Source: a virus
Taxonomy: Duplodnaviria > Heunggongvirae > Uroviricota > Caudoviricetes
Length of the DNA: 33,807 bases
Strand: one strand, 5' to 3'
IMG/VR virus record: IMGVR_UViG_2695420701_000007
Coordinates: 1-33,807 of that record
Positions within the stretch are counted from its first letter, which is position 1, and every line of letters starts with the position of its first letter. Position numbers and translations under genes: made by a program. Positions 2,315-33,807 of this stretch are shown piece by piece. Under the pieces are notes generated by a model that saw nothing but the letters and a program-made list of their open reading frames with translations, was not told the origin of the DNA and did no database searches.

Positions 2315-3485
2315 TCTTCACCTCAACTGTCAGTGTGTTCAGGCGGGGTACGTTCAGATCGCTGATGATATCCTCAAGGGAAAACGTCACGGATCCCACC
2401 AGAGGAAAGGTGTCATGCAGTTCGCGTCCCAGTTGCGAGAATGAAAAGCGACTGTATGGCCATGTGCGGGTTACGTCGTAGTTACTGTTTTCACGGAATG
2501 CACAACGAATCAGGTTTTCAGTGCCTGATTTCAGGGCGTCGATATCGTTTTTGCTGATATTGGAAAGGTTTTCAACATACACCGTAACCGCCAGATCGTG
2601 GCGGGTTTCCGGCATGGCAAAACAACGCATATCATCGCCGTGGCCGTGATGTCCCTGTGCCATGATGTAATCATTCACGCTGTCAACCCAGGGTTGCGAA
2701 ATAACCCCGGTATCCAGCAGCAGGTAGGCATTAGCTGTACCAGGTCCTCGCGGGGCGTCATGTAAAAAGAAGATGCGATCGATGGTCAGTCCGGCCTGTG
2801 CAGCTATCAGGCTGCGGTAAACTGCGTCAGTGTGATAACTGCCGGCAAGGTTAAACTGGTTACGGCAACGATCTTTTAGTTCGTCGTCACTTTCGCGGTT
2901 TGCGCCCGGTATGGTCAGCCAGTTATCACCGTTACGTACAGACGCAATTCCGTTAATCGCTTTGGGGAGTATCTGGTAATAGCCTGGTGCCAGATTGAAT
3001 GCCGTACCGCTGTCGGTGGCGATCACATCAATAAGGGTGCTTTGCGTGCCTGCGGGGATAATTACCTGCTCGCGGGTCGCCATGGAATAAATCACACCGT
3101 TAATACGCTCCGTCTGAATCAGTGTGCCAGCCGGTACGGTCACACTGTCATTCTGGTTGTTTTTGGTAAAAATGATTTTACCGATCGCACGCGTGGCTTC
3201 CTTGCGGGTAAGCTTGAGGGCGGCAGCGAACAGGTCAACGAACGGCCCTCTGGCAGTCATCAGAAACAGATTATGCAGTACATTGTCAGCCAGTGTGTCA
3301 ACAATCCACACATACGGCGTGATAACCAGCAACTGAATCAGCCGCCAGAATGGCGACATGCGCGACGTATTGGTGATGAGTTTTTCATCATCTGCCACCT
3401 GTTGCAGGGTGTCACGTACGGTCTGTTCATCAACCGGCATTCCGCTTTCGCGCAGTATGTTTTTGAAGTCGATATTATTCTGCAT
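2307..3485 (-). CDS. Baseplate J-like protein
   Basis: 392 aa; position between W-like and I-like genes, overlapping both neighbours (coupled operon); size and order match baseplate J family. Confidence 0.6.
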   Translation of the reverse strand: MQNNIDFKNILRESGMPVDEQTVRDTLQQVADDEKLITNTSRMSPFWRLIQLLVITPYVWIVDTLADNVLHNLFLMTARGPFVDLFAAALKLTRKEATRAIGKIIFTKNNQNDSVTVPAGTLIQTERINGVIYSMATREQVIIPAGTQSTLIDVIATDSGTAFNLAPGYYQILPKAINGIASVRNGDNWLTIPGANRESDDELKDRCRNQFNLAGSYHTDAVYRSLIAAQAGLTIDRIFFLHDAPRGPGTANAYLLLDTGVISQPWVDSVNDYIMAQGHHGHGDDMRCFAMPETRHDLAVTVYVENLSNISKNDIDALKSGTENLIRCAFRENSNYDVTRTWPYSRFSFSQLGRELHDTFPLVGSVTFSLEDIISDLNVPRLNTLTVEVKNV

Positions 3486-3816: not shown

Positions 3817-5898
3817 TCACCCCGCTGCCAGTTCGCTGTATTCCGCCAGTTGTCCCGGTGTCGCCAGGGTGTCAACGTGCAGTGTGATATCCTGCTTAAC
3901 GTTGTTATTGGTGACTTTGTCGCCCCGGTTGTTGCTTATCTGGTGACTTACCGGCCCGCCCTGGATGGCGGCGCTACGGTTGCCAGTGATAAGCTCCGGG
4001 GCGGGTGTCGGTGCGACGGTCTGTTGTGCGGTGCTGATATTGACACCGGGGATTTTGTTGAGCTTCTCTGCTATCCAGTTCCATGTCCCGGTAAAGGCGC
4101 TCTTAATGGAATCCCATATGCCGTCAAAGAGCTTGCCAATTCCAGCTGTGATATTGCCGAATGTGTCGGCCAGCGAGAAATTTTTAAACCAGTTCGTCAG
4201 ATTGTCCCATCCGGCTTTAATGCTGTTCCATGCATCATCAAACCAGCCCACCACAGCGTTAATGACTTTTAGCAGGGCACTGAAAGCTTCCGTGTCCATG
4301 ATGGCGGCTTTAATACTGTCCCAGTATTTGATAGCCAGACAGATCCCTACGGCAAGTGCGGCAATGGCGAGAATAATCAGGGTTATGGGACTTATCAGGA
4401 GTTGAAGCGCACCGCCTGCGAATGCCGTCGCCACGCCCCACAGGCGCATTGCAACCGCGCCCGCACGTAACACTACGTTCCAGGCTACGATCGCTGCTTT
4501 ACAGATCCCTGCCCAAAGAGCGACCAGCTTTGACCACACCCAGACGGCTTTTTCCTGAATCCATAGCCCCATCAGGCCAAGACGGGTTGAAAGCAGGGAG
4601 GGGCGTAATAAATCCAGGGTGAAGATTAGTCCTTTCCATGCGCCTTTCAGCACGCCAGCAATTCCGCTGAGCCCGGTCATGATAAAGCCGAAGGCCCCCA
4701 TCGTGATACTGGCAAGCGCCCCTGCTGCGGCAAAGGCGAGGGTCATTGCAGTGATATATCCCAGCCAGCGGGCAATATTGGGGAACGTATCCAGCCATTT
4801 CATGAAGGCTTTCCCGCCAGTGATGATTTTTTGCAGGAACGGGGCAAAGACGGGATCGAGCCGCAGACCGATACTGACGCGAACCTGCTCCAGTAAAGAA
4901 TTAACCTGATCCCACGGGTCAACCATCTTTTTCGCCATTTCGATGGCTTTATCCATGCCTTTGATGTTACCTAATGTATTGATGTTCCGTTTCAGCCCGT
5001 CAACATCTCCGGCCAGTAGTTTAATCATGGACACCGCTTCATCGCTGCCAAAGGCTTTTTTCAGCAGGTCTGCATCTGCCACTTTTGACAGATCACCAAA
5101 CTTTCCTTTAATCAGATCGATGATGCCGGTAATGCTTCTGGCACTGCCGTCCCGGTTGGTAAAGTTCAGCCCCAGCACTTTTTGCGCATTCCCAATCCCC
5201 GCCAGGAATGATTTATATTTGGTTCCCGCCTCGCTGCCTGACATGGTGGACTGGAGCTGTCCCAGTACGGCGAACTGTTCAGCGGCAGATACCTTCATTG
5301 CCTGCGCGTTGGCACCCAGCGCAGTAAAGGCAGCAGACATTTCATTACCGGTAGTTTTGAACACCTGAACGGCGGTTGCGGTCTGCCCGGCAATTTGTTC
5401 AACCCACTGCGTGCGCCCCATCTTCTCTGCGGTATTTTTAAAAACACCGTACATGGTGCCCATATAGTTAGTAATGGTGGCCGTGTCTGATTTGGTGGCT
5501 TTGGCGAGAATGGCGGATGCTTCAGTAAATTTTGGCAGTTCATCGCCCTGAAGTCCTGCGATGGCGGACTGGATATCGTAGGCGCTGCGGACGAAATTGC
5601 TGGCGCTTTCGCCGTAGTTAATGGCAAACGTCTGTGAAGTTTTACGCAGCTGATCGAGTGTTTTATTTGCCACATCCAGCGAGCTGACTTCGGCCAGCGC
5701 GGCTTCCATGTCGCGGGCGGGGTTGACCAGTCCTTTTATTCCCTGAGCAGCACCCCATAACCCGGCCACACCAAAACCGAGACGTTTAAAGTCGGCTGTT
5801 GCCTTGTCAGCAAATCCGGTCACAGCCGATTGCGCCTGTTTTAAGGGTCTCGTCAGCTTATCAACCAGACTTAGCGTAAAATCAAGTTCAGCAGCCAT
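3817..5898 (-). CDS. Tail tape measure protein
   Basis: 693 aa, Ala/Gly-rich with long predicted helices and a hydrophobic central block; follows the chaperone/frameshift gene; start ATG overlaps the stop of the E' frame (TAATG). Confidence 0.8.
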   Translation of the reverse strand: MAAELDFTLSLVDKLTRPLKQAQSAVTGFADKATADFKRLGFGVAGLWGAAQGIKGLVNPARDMEAALAEVSSLDVANKTLDQLRKTSQTFAINYGESASNFVRSAYDIQSAIAGLQGDELPKFTEASAILAKATKSDTATITNYMGTMYGVFKNTAEKMGRTQWVEQIAGQTATAVQVFKTTGNEMSAAFTALGANAQAMKVSAAEQFAVLGQLQSTMSGSEAGTKYKSFLAGIGNAQKVLGLNFTNRDGSARSITGIIDLIKGKFGDLSKVADADLLKKAFGSDEAVSMIKLLAGDVDGLKRNINTLGNIKGMDKAIEMAKKMVDPWDQVNSLLEQVRVSIGLRLDPVFAPFLQKIITGGKAFMKWLDTFPNIARWLGYITAMTLAFAAAGALASITMGAFGFIMTGLSGIAGVLKGAWKGLIFTLDLLRPSLLSTRLGLMGLWIQEKAVWVWSKLVALWAGICKAAIVAWNVVLRAGAVAMRLWGVATAFAGGALQLLISPITLIILAIAALAVGICLAIKYWDSIKAAIMDTEAFSALLKVINAVVGWFDDAWNSIKAGWDNLTNWFKNFSLADTFGNITAGIGKLFDGIWDSIKSAFTGTWNWIAEKLNKIPGVNISTAQQTVAPTPAPELITGNRSAAIQGGPVSHQISNNRGDKVTNNNVKQDITLHVDTLATPGQLAEYSELAAG

Positions 5899-6095
5899 TA
5901 CCCACCTTTAAATGCTCTCGCAATGCCGTTATTGATGGCAATACTCATGTTTTCGAAATAACGGTTGTCCAGCCAGACCGCAGCGGCAATGTCTTCCGGT
6001 GTGTCCTCGCCATCCGGTAGCCAGTGGCGGCGCAATACCAGATATTGCGCGTAGCCGTTGCGCTCAATGCCGGACAGTGCCGCCTTTATTTTTTT
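5898..6095 (-). other. Programmed -1 ribosomal frameshift site and E' extension (chaperone E+E' fusion)
   Basis: Slippery heptamer A_AAA_AAA (complement of 6089-6095) followed in the -1 frame by an open frame of about 56 codons (IKAALSGIERNGYAQYLVLRRHWLPDGEDTPEDIAAAVWLDNRYFENMSIAINNGIARAFKGG) ending at a TAA that overlaps the tape measure ATG. Confidence 0.65.
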
Positions 6096-6385
6096 ACGGT
6101 GATATCCAGATTGACGGCAAAATCTTCATTGAGTTTTGCTGCCATCTGAAGGGCTGCTCCCGGGCGGTGAATGAGCTTCTCCAGTTTCTCTTTGTCTTCC
6201 GGGTGTACGCAGCGCATCAGGTAGTTTTTGGCTGGTGCTACCTTGTTATCCATCGTTATTTCATTCACGAACTTGTTGTAGACAGCTTCGGTCGGGGCGA
6301 AGCGAATATCCTCGCCTGCGACGGTCAGGGTGATGATGGTGGTATTTTCGTCTTTCATGCTATTTTCCCCGGTGAGTGGTGCCAT
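6086..6385 (-). CDS. Tail assembly chaperone (gpE-like; zero-frame product)
   Basis: 99 aa ORF directly upstream of the tape measure gene; ends ...ACC GTA AAA AAA TAA with a slippery A_AAA_AAA heptamer just before the stop. Confidence 0.65.
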   Translation of the reverse strand: MAPLTGENSMKDENTTIITLTVAGEDIRFAPTEAVYNKFVNEITMDNKVAPAKNYLMRCVHPEDKEKLEKLIHRPGAALQMAAKLNEDFAVNLDITVKK

Positions 6386-6388
6386 TTT

Positions 6389-6853
6389 TTAATGACATTG
6401 TTCAGTAATGTACTGTTGCAGGCCGTTCACTTGTGCAACGACGGCTTTCGCTTCGGCTCTGAGATGCTGATAATCCCGTTCAGCGTCCGGAGTAAGTCGG
6501 GCGGCGGTTGCATCAGTTGAGCCGGTGGCGGTGGTATCACGCGTGGCGGCGGGCATACAGACGGCGTGGAGCTGCAACCGGCGACGGCCAGAAGCAAGAT
6601 CGGCGCGTAACTTTTCGGATTCAGCTTTTGCATTGGCGAGCTCCTTTGTGTATTTCGCATCAAGCGCGGCGTTCTGGCGCTGACGCAGTGTCATGTCGTC
6701 AATGGTCTGCTGTCGGGTGTCGGCAAGCTTTACGGCTTTCTGGCGGGCTTTTTCTGCCCTGGTGAAGCGGTTGTGCCAGTGGTCAGCCGTGAAGCCGAGC
6801 ACGGCCACGGCGACGACCATGAAGACGATAAAGGCGAGCGTTGCGCGTTTCAT
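6389..6853 (-). CDS. Rz-like i-spanin (inner-membrane spanin)
   Basis: 154 aa; N-terminal TM segment (LAFIVFMVVAVAVLGF), then coiled-coil region with DAKYTKELANAKAE...GRRRL, C-terminal YITEQC; closely resembles lambda Rz. Confidence 0.8.
   Translation of the reverse strand: MKRATLAFIVFMVVAVAVLGFTADHWHNRFTRAEKARQKAVKLADTRQQTIDDMTLRQRQNAALDAKYTKELANAKAESEKLRADLASGRRRLQLHAVCMPAATRDTTATGSTDATAARLTPDAERDYQHLRAEAKAVVAQVNGLQQYITEQCH
6427..6633 (-). CDS. Rz1-like o-spanin lipoprotein, embedded in Rz in another frame
   Basis: Listed ORF 6427-6663; likely start at the internal Met (MQKLNPKSYAPILLLAVAGCSS) giving a lipobox LAVAGC followed by a proline-rich body (CPPPRVIPPPPAQLMQPPPD). Confidence 0.7.
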   Translation of the reverse strand: MQKLNPKSYAPILLLAVAGCSSTPSVCPPPRVIPPPPAQLMQPPPDLLRTLNGIISISEPKRKPSLHK

Positions 6854-6859
6854 GTGGCC

Positions 6860-7303
6860 TTACCTCTGTCCCAGAAACATTGCCCGTTCACGTCCGCGAC
6901 GCGGGGCCAGAATTGTCGGGTTACTGCCTGCGCGGCTCCATTTCAGGAAAGCATCAGCGGCGGCGGTGTAGTTGCCGGCGTTTAACTGACGGCGAACGGT
7001 GGAACCGATAAAAGCGTCAGCGCCGATATTGAAAATCAGGCTACACAACGCGTCATACTGACTCTGGTTCAGCGGAACTGTTACCCGTTCAGCGATGCAG
7101 TGCTCCACCCATGACAGATCGTCGCGTAGCAGTCTGTCGGCGGTGTCCTGAGTGATGGTCATGCCCTTGTGAACTGCGACACCATCAACCTTTCCTGTGT
7201 GACCTGTACCAATGGTCCATACGCCGCGCGGGTCGGGGTAAGCGGTCAGTTTGCAGTTTTCTTCGCGTTTAAGTGCGGTCAGCCCGTTGTCTGAAATTTT
7301 CAT
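6860..7303 (-). CDS. Endolysin, phage lysozyme (T4-lysozyme-like, GH24 pattern)
   Basis: 147 aa; N-terminus GLTALKREENCKLTAYPDPRGVWTIGTGHTG matches the lysozyme catalytic region (E...D...T triad context); start overlaps the holin stop. Confidence 0.8.
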   Translation of the reverse strand: MKISDNGLTALKREENCKLTAYPDPRGVWTIGTGHTGKVDGVAVHKGMTITQDTADRLLRDDLSWVEHCIAERVTVPLNQSQYDALCSLIFNIGADAFIGSTVRRQLNAGNYTAAADAFLKWSRAGSNPTILAPRRGRERAMFLGQR

Positions 7304-7638
7304 TCGTCATTTTTCCCTGCAAATTTCTTTGTGATGAACACACCCAGTGCCCGGATATGTTCAACACCAATAAGGCCAATTGCGGCACCGATACCGACGC
7401 GCCAGTCTTCGGCCAGCCATGCGACGGGGACCGGCTTGATGAGGGTGAATGCCGCCACGGCCAGCAGGCAACACAACGGCACCTCAAGCAAAAGACGACG
7501 CCAGCTGCGGCCTGTGTAAAACACTCTGAGTGCTGCAATGACGGCAGTCATCAGTAGACTGTCAAGAGGGATATCACCACGTAACCAGTCTTTGATTATC
7601 GCCAGCCAGTCGCTCCAGTTGTGGGGAGGGCTTTGCAT
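7300..7638 (-). CDS. Holin (putative, 3 hydrophobic segments)
   Basis: 112 aa with hydrophobic segments LLMTAVIAALRVFY, LLLEVPLCCLLAVAAFTLI, VGIGAAIGLIGV and charged C-terminus (KKFAGKNDE); immediately upstream of the lysozyme. Confidence 0.6.
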   Translation of the reverse strand: MQSPPHNWSDWLAIIKDWLRGDIPLDSLLMTAVIAALRVFYTGRSWRRLLLEVPLCCLLAVAAFTLIKPVPVAWLAEDWRVGIGAAIGLIGVEHIRALGVFITKKFAGKNDE

Positions 7639-7646
7639 TGTCTTTC

Positions 7647-8108
7647 CTATTGGTTCATGATGTCCCGAACATCGGTGGCGCTGAGAACCGGAACACCGTC
7701 AATTTTGACGAACTCCGGCGAAGTCACCATAAATTTGATTTTATGGCTTATGTTGTCACCGCCCTTGCTGTCGATACTCAGCAGGTTACTGATCAGCAGT
7801 TTGCAACCAAAGGCTTCCACCCTGAGTTCTGTCTTTGCTGCACGGGCAAAGAAGAGAAAGTCGGCTTCTTCGATGTCGCGCCAGCTCCCTGCTTCACGCG
7901 CGGCTTCGCCAAGAAGCTGGAAGTTAACGGTATCCAGTTCAATTTCACCGCCAGCTTCCACGTCGCCGCGTACCCAGCCATCAGGTACACCGCGCTCCTG
8001 GATGGCTTTGGTGTTGTCGGTAATATCAAGGGTGGCAGTTTTTACGTGAACGATGCGGCCATTAAATGACACGTCAAAGCTCATGCCACTGATGCGTTCG
8101 GTGCTCAT
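7647..8108 (-). CDS. Tail tube protein (putative)
   Basis: 153 aa, directly downstream of the sheath-sized gene; size and position fit a contractile-tail tube protein. No sequence motif recognised with certainty. Confidence 0.5.
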   Translation of the reverse strand: MSTERISGMSFDVSFNGRIVHVKTATLDITDNTKAIQERGVPDGWVRGDVEAGGEIELDTVNFQLLGEAAREAGSWRDIEEADFLFFARAAKTELRVEAFGCKLLISNLLSIDSKGGDNISHKIKFMVTSPEFVKIDGVPVLSATDVRDIMNQ

Positions 8109-8111
8109 GGG

Positions 8112-9236
8112 TTACTCTCCGCTTTCGTCCAGCATGATGCTGATGGTGATTTCTTTCGGGCAGTTATACGGGCGAACCACGATCGCAATCTGCACTTTGT
8201 CTTTTTCCGGCCATGAGATTTTTACGTCGCCGTCGCGCGGTGACATGCAAAGGCCAGGGAATACCGTGCCGTTGATTTTCAGGCTCTTTGCGCCGTCGCG
8301 CATGGGCTTCGCAAAAAGCTGTTGGTGCGCGGCCACACTTGCCGGGGTGGAGTTCAGTGAGCGATCGGCGATTTTTGGGATAGCCAGCAAACGCACCTGA
8401 CGGGCCATTTCATCGGCAACGCGCAGATATTCGATAGCCTGATAATCGCCACCGTCCACATCGAGCGTGACGCCGTCGGCCCAGTAGTAACCTTCGTAGT
8501 CGGGATACCACGTTGGTACGCTGAAACGCGCCCTGTTCAGGGCCCTGATGGTGGCAGTGTCCAGTTCGCGCTTGTCGCTGTCCTGCGGTTTATCGTTGCG
8601 GCCCATATTGACCAGTGCGCCGGTTGCAACACGGGCGGGGGAATCAGCGATCGTCACTGACGGATTGCAAAGGCGACCGGCCAGTATCCCCGGCTCATTG
8701 CCGAACAGCATCGGGGTAAGCTGCACCGCGTAAGCGGCAATGTCTTTCTGTAGTCCGGTTATGGCGGTGACGTATTCTGACCACTTCTCGCCTGTTCCGC
8801 AGCCGCGAACAGCCAGGATAAACCATGTCCAGCGCTGGAAGGTGTTATTGAGTTCGCTGCGCAGTTGCTGCGCTTTGTTGATATCGTCACCTGAGGCGTT
8901 AGCGCGAACAACGACAACGCCTTCCACCGAGAGGGTGGCCTGTGCATCCATAACCACATCAACCCACGTTCGGGTCCGACCAGAAGGCTGGGGTGTCTGC
9001 ACGGTTGCCAGCCAGATCATGGCATTTTGTCCGGCATTATCCAGAAACGCCTGCACGTTACTGCGCAACAATGAATCCTTTGTTCCTAGCAGCGAGTCAA
9101 GATCGGTTTGTGCTGTAACCGGTGTCGGGAGAATGGCTTTTGTGTGCTCGCCCACCATCAGCAGGGTGCAGGCGATCCCACGCTTGCTTCCGCTGTGGGT
9201 GTTGAGCTGATTAATCGTGACCTGTGGAAACGTCAT
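8112..9236 (-). CDS. Tail sheath protein (putative)
   Basis: 374 aa, follows the S-like gene and precedes the tube gene; assignment by size and synteny. Confidence 0.5.
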   Translation of the reverse strand: MTFPQVTINQLNTHSGSKRGIACTLLMVGEHTKAILPTPVTAQTDLDSLLGTKDSLLRSNVQAFLDNAGQNAMIWLATVQTPQPSGRTRTWVDVVMDAQATLSVEGVVVVRANASGDDINKAQQLRSELNNTFQRWTWFILAVRGCGTGEKWSEYVTAITGLQKDIAAYAVQLTPMLFGNEPGILAGRLCNPSVTIADSPARVATGALVNMGRNDKPQDSDKRELDTATIRALNRARFSVPTWYPDYEGYYWADGVTLDVDGGDYQAIEYLRVADEMARQVRLLAIPKIADRSLNSTPASVAAHQQLFAKPMRDGAKSLKINGTVFPGLCMSPRDGDVKISWPEKDKVQIAIVVRPYNCPKEITISIMLDESGE

Positions 9237-23315: not shown

Positions 23316-23492
23316 GATGTGGCCTCTATGTGTGTAAGTTTTGAAAACTCACCATCCAGAGCTGCGAAACTGTGGGTGGCGAGACGTACGAGGTTCGCAG
23401 TACCGGCAAACATAGAACCCGGCCCGACCGAAGTCGGCCCCGTACGCCCCACCATAATTCGTGTGCGAAAAAGATGTGGCGATACAGTACGC

Positions 23493-23515
23493 ACAAAAAA
23501 ACCGCTGGCGCGGTT
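23493..23515 (-). terminator. Rho-independent terminator candidate (minus strand)
   Basis: Minus-strand reading AACCGCGCCAGCGGTTTTTTTGTG: GC-rich hairpin (ACCGC/GCGGT) followed by a T7 run, inside a roughly 320-bp non-coding stretch. Confidence 0.5.
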
Positions 23516-23635
23516 GTGCGCTATGTTTGTCAGCGGGCTGCGAAACCCGGCACCCGTTTTATGAGGTGCAGCGGAAATGTAACCTGACTGATTGCGACAT
23601 GGCAAGCGGTTTTTTTGTGTGTGCATGATGATCAC

Positions 23636-27161: not shown

Positions 27162-27404
27162 TTACTCCGTAATTATTGCGGGTTCGGGAACCATGCCATC
27201 CGTTAATTGTTTCGCCATCCGGTTAAGTTCTTTAAGGTCCTCGCTGGCTCCCGTATCTTTTGAACAAAACAGGGTGTTGCGGACGCTGAATATTCCGCAC
27301 TTCATTACTTCGAAGTGTGTTTTTCTGGCGCGGGGATTAATTTCGTTATCGAAGTAATATCCCTGCAGAAATTCGTTTACCTGTTCTGCTGTGTGTTTTC
27401 TCAT
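27162..27404 (-). CDS. Hypothetical protein
   Basis: 80 aa ORF, 5 nt upstream of the small membrane protein gene. Confidence 0.4.
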   Translation of the reverse strand: MRKHTAEQVNEFLQGYYFDNEINPRARKTHFEVMKCGIFSVRNTLFCSKDTGASEDLKELNRMAKQLTDGMVPEPAIITE

Positions 27405-27445: not shown

Positions 27446-27796
27446 TTATAACTCAGCCTGTTTAATAAAATTTTCTCCGTAAAGAAGGCGATCAACTGTG
27501 CGTAGCGCTTCGTACAACGTGAAATCCTGCCCGAACTGATTGTCGCCGCAGCTCAGAGCAAAAATGCGGTTTCCGGTAAACGGATTGCGCGGGTATTTGT
27601 GGACCACTATTCCAGCTTTCTCAATCATCCAGGTATGCTCGCCAATTTGTTTTACTGTATGGCCATCTGGTGTTGCGTGCGTCTCGTTCAGGTTATAGCG
27701 ACTGTTACTACGTGATGCACTGGTAGCGACGTGGTGTACATGGCGTTCTACGCCATTACGAAATTTGGAGTATGGATTATTAGTGTTTTTTTTCAT
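27446..27796 (-). CDS. Hypothetical protein
   Basis: 116 aa ORF in the early operon. Confidence 0.4.
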   Translation of the reverse strand: MKKNTNNPYSKFRNGVERHVHHVATSASRSNSRYNLNETHATPDGHTVKQIGEHTWMIEKAGIVVHKYPRNPFTGNRIFALSCGDNQFGQDFTLYEALRTVDRLLYGENFIKQAEL

Positions 27797-33711: not shown

Positions 33712-33807
33712 CTGATGAATCCCCTAATGATTTTGGTAAAAATCATTAAGTTAAGGTGGATACACATCTTGTCATATGATCAAATGGTTTCGCGAAAAAT
33801 CAATAAT
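33712..33807 (+). mobile_element. IS10 (Tn10-type) outside end, partial; extends beyond the window
   Basis: CTGATGAATCCCCTAATGATTTTGGTAAAAATCATTAAGTTAAGGTGGATACACATCTTGTCATATGATCAAATGGTTTCGCGAAAAATCAATAAT matches the IS10 outside terminus as I recall it (terminal inverted repeat, pIN promoter region with its GATC site). Confidence 0.75.

Follow-up and report, generated by a model that had tools for sequence, protein, structure and literature searches.

The viral DNA analyzed here, a stretch of 33,807 nucleotides (nt) from IMG/VR record IMGVR_UViG_2695420701_000007 that we refer to as the window, carries a tail assembly chaperone gene that ends in a slippery heptamer and a stop codon and is followed by an open -1 reading frame reaching the start of the tail tape measure gene. 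All coordinates are those of the whole window, in which the chaperone and tape measure genes lie on the minus strand. The zero-frame chaperone open reading frame (ORF; 6385..6086) encodes 99 amino acids (aa) from the ATG at 6385, but an internal ATG at 6358, which is preceded by a GGGGA Shine-Dalgarno (SD) sequence, yields a form of 90 aa, is the start used by PGAP and in relatives, and is the more likely start of the two. The ORF ends in ACC GTA AAA AAA TAA. As an initial annotation, made from the letters of the window alone, had described it, the heptamer A_AAA_AAA (6095..6089) directly precedes the stop (6088..6086); it lies in the X_XXY_YYZ phase over the zero-frame codons (GT)A AAA AAA, and the adjacent TAA might contribute to slippage as a "shifty stop."

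Both the zero and the -1 frames are open across 40 nt (6125..6086), the region in which a shift must occur. From 6125, the -1 frame continues for 75 codons to a TAA at 5900..5898, and upon retranslation, we found no stop between the slip site and that codon. Sixty-three codons (IKAALSGIERNGYAQYLVLRRHWLPDGEDTPEDIAAAVWLDNRYFENMSIAINNGIARAFKGG; 6089..5901) follow the slip, so that the initial annotation was right about the open frame but undercounted it at about 56 codons. It was also right that the stop of this frame overlaps the tape measure start: the TAA shares one base with the ATG at 5898 (GGG TAATG G), directly upstream of which lies AAAGGTGGG. While all elements that the initial annotation placed at 5898-6100 are indeed present, it left the strand unstated. 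The tape measure gene itself (5898..3817) encodes 693 aa that match Pfam PhageMin_Tail (1.7e-28), and its product is the expected client of the chaperone. Translation across the slip site would result in a trans-frame protein of 162 aa (153 aa from the ATG at 6358), with a predicted junction of ...DITVKK followed by IKAALSGIERNG... and the peptide NLDITVKKIKAALSGIE spanning the slip.

Each half of this predicted protein belongs to a described family. In the zero frame, the encoded protein falls into Pfam Phage_TAC_10 ("phage tail assembly chaperone"; 1.6e-30, 105.6 bits against a cutoff of 25.7), and the -1 extension matches Pfam DUF6890 (PF21830; E = 2.4e-22, 78.8 bits against a cutoff of 23.6) over the entire profile, positions 1 to 44 of 44, at fusion residues 118 to 161 (6035..5904). 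The extension furthermore matches PHROG 7050 (2.6e-23), and the fusion matches DUF6848, albeit below the cutoff of that family; a sequence search of the PDB returned no relevant match. Judged by these domains, the chaperone pair is of the HP1 orf26 type, with Phage_TAC_10 in the zero frame and DUF6890 in the -1 frame.

The arrangement is conserved well beyond the window. A tblastn search with the fusion against 50,697 phage records matched 76 of them, all within the Peduoviridae and including HP1, HP2, K139, Kappa, phiO18P, F108, and ESSI-2; in every one, the match falls into two pieces in two frames, with at least 80% of the fusion covered. In all 12 distinct phage lineages that we analyzed, whose chaperones share 33 to 57% identity with that of the window, the extension lies in the -1 frame and GTA/CTA AAA AAN falls in phase within the overlap; the heptamer ends in C in seven lineages, in A in four, and in G in one. 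The overlap shrinks to only 13 nt (AGTAAAAAACTGA) in ESSI2_ev239, YenM_324, and many genome loci; the site of the shift is therefore pinned to the A run, as it could occur nowhere else.

A scan of one genome per bacterial species, which provided 42 loci from Enterobacterales, Aeromonas, Oceanimonas, Morganella, and others, gave the same picture. An in-phase A_AAA_AAC followed at once by a stop was found in 40 of them, with the -1 frame open for 61 to 63 codons and the +1 frame for only 1 to 28. The codon ahead of the lysines is GTA, CTA, or ATA, so that the encoded amino acid varies among V, L, and I, while the third base, which is the first A of the heptamer, is strictly conserved. This invariance despite a varying amino acid indicates selection on the nucleotide itself. 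Within the subclade of the window (E. coli, Salmonella, and Klebsiella oxytoca; five of five loci), GTA AAA AAA TAA is invariant, while the neighboring codons vary. Separately, we noted a locus in Enterobacter sp. EA-1 (L061, CP025776.1) whose chaperone frame is internally disrupted but which retains the AAGTAAAAAACTGA slip motif farther downstream; prophage decay or a misassembly probably accounts for it.

Downstream of the slip site, the -1 frame behaves as a coding continuation. Extensions from 26 nonredundant lineages align without gaps from the first postslip residue onward, with the consensus LTxRVxAIExNGLEQxLxLRRHYLPHExDD...WLD...ANGIAxAF. Entropies at the three codon positions of the -1 frame (0.83/0.67/1.54) equal those of the chaperone ORF upstream (0.86/0.64/1.50), and among moderately diverged pairs, synonymous and nonsynonymous codon differences number 854:580 in the -1 frame, versus 277:1315 and 101:1451 in the other two. 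Consistent with this, 13 of the 15 differences between the extensions of the window and of L009 fall on third positions. This pattern of substitution shows purifying selection on the extension in the -1 frame only. Stop codon readthrough and a +1 shift were considered and rejected, as the zero-frame and +1 readings of the spacer carry no coding signal and the +1 frame closes so early in relatives.

The extension likewise lacks a start of its own. In the alignment of relatives, no start codon is conserved and no usable SD sequence precedes any candidate; in YenM_324 and SMHB1, the first ATG, GTG, or TTG appears only at extension residues 38 to 40, past the conserved LRRHYLP motif. When 1.84 billion representative proteins were searched exhaustively by HMMER, using the extension alone as the query, only 36 matches emerged, almost all of which are fragments of 28 to 81 aa with arbitrary starts, which is what gene callers produce in a frame that has no start. 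No fusion protein of ~150 aa was among these matches, and four long ones (P0024, P0056, P0058, and P0059) proved to be repeat artifacts of the "LHWLPSG" type rather than homologs. Gene calls skip the corresponding ~187 nt in genome and metagenome contigs of close relatives.

The locus thus combines two overlapping ORFs ahead of a tape measure gene, a conserved in-phase slip site, and a conserved second ORF without a start, as expected of a frameshifted chaperone pair in the lambda G/GT - P2 E/E+E' class defined by Xu et al. 2004. Given the anatomy of the site, the conservation of frame and heptamer, and a -1 coding sequence that is under selection and has no start of its own, we consider it highly probable that a programmed -1 ribosomal frameshift at A_AAA_AAA yields a pair of chaperones like lambda G and GT, as the initial annotation had proposed. 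We infer from sequence comparison that ribosomes shift, how efficiently and with which tRNAs they do so, what the adjacent stop contributes, and what the two domains do.

In this model, most ribosomes would end chaperone translation at the UAA (6088..6086) and release a protein of ~90 to 99 aa. A minority would slip one nucleotide back on the heptamer, most likely because tRNA-Lys in the P site, and probably in the A site too, re-pairs from AAA to AAA, and would then read AUA AAG GCG ... for 63 further codons in the -1 frame. The long product, of 153 to 162 aa, would comprise the chaperone and DUF6890 and end exactly at the tape measure start. By analogy to lambda gpG/gpGT and P2 gpE/gpE+E', coating of the tape measure protein would fall to the short form, and the extra domain of the rare long form would bring in the tail tube protein, with slip efficiency providing the low, fixed ratio that tail assembly requires. 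Lambda needs G and GT at ~30:1, with G binding the tape measure and the T domain binding the tube protein (PMC5009743).

Several observations weigh against this interpretation. No experimental report of the fusion product was found in the literature for any member of the HP1-type family, and the heptamer of the window is a weak one, since A_AAA_AAA and A_AAA_AAC are much less shifty than A_AAA_AAG in E. coli (Atkins et al. 2016, PMC5009743). Because a lambda-like pair needs a ratio such as 30:1, though, a weak heptamer fits the proposed function. In Citrobacter sp. FP75 (L027, NZ_JAFDOE010000001.1, locus positions ~920-950), the sole relative with a disrupted heptamer, the site reads GTA AAG AAA TAA, and the 62-codon -1 extension is intact and conserved; this may reflect a single-tRNA slip on A_AAG, a recently inactivated prophage, or a sequencing error.

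Taken as a single sequence, moreover, the window offers little. From base composition, 63 open codons are expected with a probability of ~0.06, and A7 runs are not enriched (17 observed versus 10.4 +/- 4.2 expected). Of the window's 144 ORFs that span 80 codons or more, 46 are followed by at least 62 open -1 codons past their stop, because the next gene mostly lies there; the combination of an in-phase heptamer within the last 15 codons and an open -1 frame is found in 2 of the 144. The single-sequence observation is not statistically significant, and the case therefore rests on gene identity and on conservation in relatives. The other of these two sites is an in-phase A_AAT_TTT toward the 3' end of an ORF of 116 aa (27796..27446, minus strand), behind which the -1 frame stays open for a long stretch; we judged it coincidental, because the next gene (27162..27404, minus strand) has its own ATG and a GAGGA SD sequence behind a 41-nt spacer.

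RNA structure provides no clear stimulator either. RNAalifold detected no structure conserved across the family, and no canonical downstream stimulator could be established in the window. A strong local hairpin (GCGCAAUAU-CUG-GUAUUGCGC; 6050..6030) begins 38 nt 3' of the heptamer, farther off than a canonical stimulator would lie; within the subclade, its pairs 51-61 and 52-60 show compensatory changes, and pairs 46-66, 53-59, and 54-58 are broken in some sequences. In the minimum free energy (MFE) fold, the sequence GGCGGCA (6084..6078), which is located 4 nt 3' of the heptamer, pairs as the 5' arm with 5988..5982 in a long-range stem, but the status of this stem is uncertain, as three of its seven pairs are broken in some subclade sequences and it is not conserved family-wide. 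Overall, the 114 nt downstream of the heptamer fold with an MFE of -46.8 (z = -2.38 versus shuffled sequences), and the subclade shows z values of -2.2 to -3.2, with compensatory and broken pairs mixed.

Many HP1-type relatives have an 8-bp hairpin that starts 9 nt 3' of the heptamer (CGAGUCCG...CGGACUCG in ESSI-2-like phages; columns 16-23/39-46 of alignment A3, e.g., L002 at ~3204-3234). In this hairpin, defined on the sequence of a family member, pairing holds in 69.6% of cells, a value reached in none of 500 shuffles, with a maximum of 46.8% in slid controls, and 27 double-change cells versus 17.8 expected point to some covariation. The hairpin is, however, lost in the subclade of the window, and seven of its eight pairs are broken in the window itself. 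Upstream, a CUGGA(U/A)AU motif ends ~9 nt before the heptamer in most members and is weakly SD-like, with a match of only 3 to 4 nt, which is explained by conserved Leu-Glu/Asp-Ile codons.

The alternative that survives best concerns how the ribosome slips, since the protein made would be the same. Under this scenario, a single tRNA-Lys slips in the P site, on the second AAA, while a slow UAA occupies the A site, making the adjacent TAA a shifty stop; we regard this as possible but rather unlikely. The ratio of short to long protein would then be set by release factor competition and not by tandem slippage or RNA structure, a corollary we consider just as doubtful. Frameshifting at shifty stops is well documented (Weiss et al. 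1987 and examples, cited in PMC5009743). The stop directly abuts the heptamer in 10 of the 12 phage lineages, in 40 of the 42 genome loci, and in all subclade members, amounting to ~93% of sampled lineages, and a shifty stop would also accommodate the lack of a structure that is conserved family-wide or that lies at canonical spacing in the window. Yet PfPro (A_AAA_AAG) and ACA1 (A_AAA_AAA) keep the heptamer with the zero-frame stop 27 to 30 nt downstream, and the abutting stop is therefore not essential; it may merely mark the end of the chaperone domain. Furthermore, the strictly conserved first A of the heptamer is unneeded for a pure P-site slip on the last codon, and with A_AAA_AAC, the P-site codon would be AAC, for which re-pairing of tRNA-Asn on AAA is a poorer fit than that of tRNA-Lys on AAA.

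A broader form of this idea can be put forward, tentatively and as probably incorrect, for the whole HP1 type: a weak A-rich heptamer and the abutting stop would set the ratio through release factor competition, independently of RNA structure, with DUF6890 as the trans-frame, tube-recruiting domain of these chaperones rather than a protein family in its own right. If this were true, the subclade of the window, with A7 followed by UAA and the hairpin of its relatives lost, would be the purest example of a shifty stop.

A programmed ribosomal shift could also be mimicked by transcriptional slippage, whereby RNA polymerase adds one A within the A7 run and the resulting A8 mRNAs encode the same ...VKKIKAAL... 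fusion. Productive polymerase slippage on A/T runs is known in bacteria, and the efficient cases described involve runs of ~9 (PMC5009743). While the window does have a homopolymeric A7, and the product would be identical to that of a ribosomal slip, A6C predominates in the family and has only six A's. As most members have so few and efficient runs are ~9, polymerase slippage is unlikely as the main route. The motif is also always in the X_XXY_YYZ phase, and A7 runs are otherwise unremarkable in the window; altogether, we give this explanation little credence.

Less probable still is an independent small gene whose translation would begin at a start of its own or, through termination-reinitiation, behind the chaperone stop. 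Such a gene is what PGAP annotates in near-identical E. coli genomes, as a 30-aa "DUF6890 family protein," and several phage records likewise give a separate small hypothetical protein here, including that of a 2024 paper on a family member, which presents the two ORFs separately (PMC11292799). The window even offers a TTG at extension residue 19. However, the 30-aa coding sequence (CDS) starts at an ATT without an SD sequence, the starts of database ORFs are arbitrary, and, as described above, a conserved start and an SD sequence are missing, with no possible start before residues 38 to 40 in YenM_324 and SMHB1. Protein conservation and third-position variation begin at the first postslip codon, and reinitiation would find no start codon, since a codon of AUA or CUA overlaps the stop in most members. 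A chance coincidence of the heptamer and an open -1 frame over a noncoding spacer has virtually nothing left to recommend it: although neither an A7 run nor a 63-codon open frame is unusual in a single sequence, the heptamer, frame, and protein are conserved across more than 50 lineages, with a Pfam domain and purifying selection in the -1 frame only, and the comparisons of phage lineages, species loci, and codon substitutions refute it.

The surroundings of the chaperone pair agree with its assignment. The genes upstream, also on the minus strand, encode a DUF2586 tail sheath (9236..8112), a tail tube protein of the Phage_HP1_Orf24 family (8108..7647), and a lysis cassette (7638..6389) that lies between tube and chaperone, as in HP1-type synteny, and consists of holin (7638..7300), lysozyme (7303..6860), and an Rz spanin with an embedded Rz1-like ORF (6853..6389); DUF2590 and Baseplate_J genes lie downstream of the tape measure. 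The element in the window is a prophage of E. coli that resembles HP1 and has the HP1-like tail synteny of sheath, tube, holin/lysozyme/Rz, chaperone, tape measure, DUF2590, and Baseplate_J. Among 5,426 complete E. coli genomes, 6 carry this prophage at 99% identity or more; strains with it include CFSAN029787 and FDAARGOS_943. The nearest isolated phages, ESSI-2-like members of Evevirus, share only ~65% DNA identity with it in the chaperone region.

Within the Rz gene (6389..6853), a 78-aa ORF in another frame (6427..6663, minus strand) has a lipobox-like LLLAVAGCSS and a proline-rich tail and looks like an Rz1-type o-spanin nested in an i-spanin gene. Elsewhere in the window, Rfam models identified a C4 antisense RNA (23372..23459, minus strand; 81.8 bits) and, beside it, an isrK Hfq-binding RNA (23495..23569, minus strand; 69 bits), both above the gathering score; C4 and isrK form an immunity/antirepressor-type RNA pair known in P1/P7-like and other prophages. 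At the window edge, a match to RNA-OUT, the IS10 antisense RNA (33757..33807, minus strand; 60.6 bits), is cut by the end of the window and suggests an IS10/Tn10-type element there.

The site is a real, conserved, and ordinary recoding site that is unannotated here, has been projected once within the family, and has been generally missed. The projection concerns Pseudoalteromonas phage ACA1, in which the entry for gp36a is a joined CDS bearing the remark [quoted passage not shown] Annotation of the frameshift is confined to records of the ACA1 type; those of HP1, K139, phiO18P, F108, SI7, and PV94 lack it, as do the E. coli RefSeq records, in which the stand-alone 30-aa DUF6890 call is wrong. 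PHROGs labels both halves "unknown function," and in our literature search, no paper mentioned "DUF6890." DUF6890 and PHROG 7050 should be read as the putative trans-frame C-terminal domain of Phage_TAC_10 chaperones. As recoding is the textbook expectation in tailed-phage tail assembly, the site raises no new biological question; its value lies mainly in annotation, where treating DUF6890 as the -1 extension of Phage_TAC_10 would correct many records.

Among known systems, the closest are HP1 orf26 and K139 orf30, together with ACA1 gp36/gp36a, which share with the window the combination of Phage_TAC_10 and DUF6890, the synteny, the position and phase of the heptamer (GTA AAA AAN), and an extension of ~60 to 64 codons that ends at the tape measure start. 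Besides the lost hairpin, two differences set the E. coli/Salmonella/Klebsiella subclade of the window apart: most HP1-type members have A_AAA_AAC where the subclade has A_AAA_AAA, and the first ~7 residues of the extension have diverged, reading IKAALSG in the window versus LTxRVxA in other members.

The use of a lysine-codon heptamer, decoded in E. coli by a single tRNA-Lys, is shared with E. coli dnaX and IS elements (A_AAA_AAG; IS1 family), and such heptamers support low-to-moderate -1 shifting in enterobacteria (PMC5009743). The dnaX site, however, has AAG as its A-site codon, an upstream SD-like element, and a stem-loop ~6 nt downstream, whereas the A-site codon in the window and its family is AAA or AAC, and no well-placed, conserved stem-loop of the dnaX type could be established in the window. 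Lambda gpG/gpGT (Levin et al. 1993; Xu et al. 2004, 2013, 2014) resembles the window pair in that a short chaperone and a rare, -1 extended form are encoded just upstream of the tape measure. The slip site of lambda is G_GGA_AAG, and this siphovirus has no apparent sequence relationship to the window.

The initial annotation had also pointed to the conserved arrangement of P2 E/E' alongside that of lambda; the arrangement is indeed the same, but the proteins belong to different families. Both P2 and the window have contractile-tail Peduoviridae genomes with a small chaperone ORF right before the tape measure, an in-phase X_XXY_YYZ heptamer, and a startless -1 extension of ~57 to 63 codons that ends at or overlaps the tape measure start. 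The comparison with P2 gpE+E' that had been suggested as a check thus gave a like layout, but homology of the sequences was detected neither by BLASTP (E = 0.22) nor by hhalign, with its shallow profiles here (1.4% for the extensions and 0.05% for the chaperone domains). That 1.4% also led us to reject the idea that DUF6890 is a remote homolog of P2 E', which a shared H-W-x-P...W spacing in BLAST had prompted; given how shallow the profiles are, a very remote or structural relationship may still exist. P2 E+E' consists of Phage_TAC_7 and Phage_P2_GpE, neither of which the window fusion matches, and the PHROG families differ too. In P2, moreover, the chaperone gene directly follows the tube gene, while the window has the lysis cassette in between.

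The slip sites differ accordingly in sequence and in their distance from the stop. P2 has T_TTT_TTG with the zero-frame stop 18 nt downstream, versus A_AAA_AAA and an abutting stop in the window, and an in-phase TTTTTTG is found in P2, PSP3, phiCTX, Fels-2, and others, with the stop 18 to 66 nt downstream, a distance that spans 6 to 66 nt across P2 relatives. In P2 itself, the frameshift is annotated in NC_001895 and was reportedly verified experimentally by Christie and colleagues in 2002, at ~10%. Two members of the P2 E/E' family depart from its usual heptamer, Mannheimia phage PHL101 (L148) with an in-phase G_GGA_AAG and Aeromonas phage AhyVDH1 (L149) with T_TTT_TTC/G_GGT_TTT in place of T_TTT_TTG, and heptamers therefore turn over inside this family too. 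The Peduoviridae thus contain two chaperone families with no detectable homology but with the same recoding arrangement and different heptamers.

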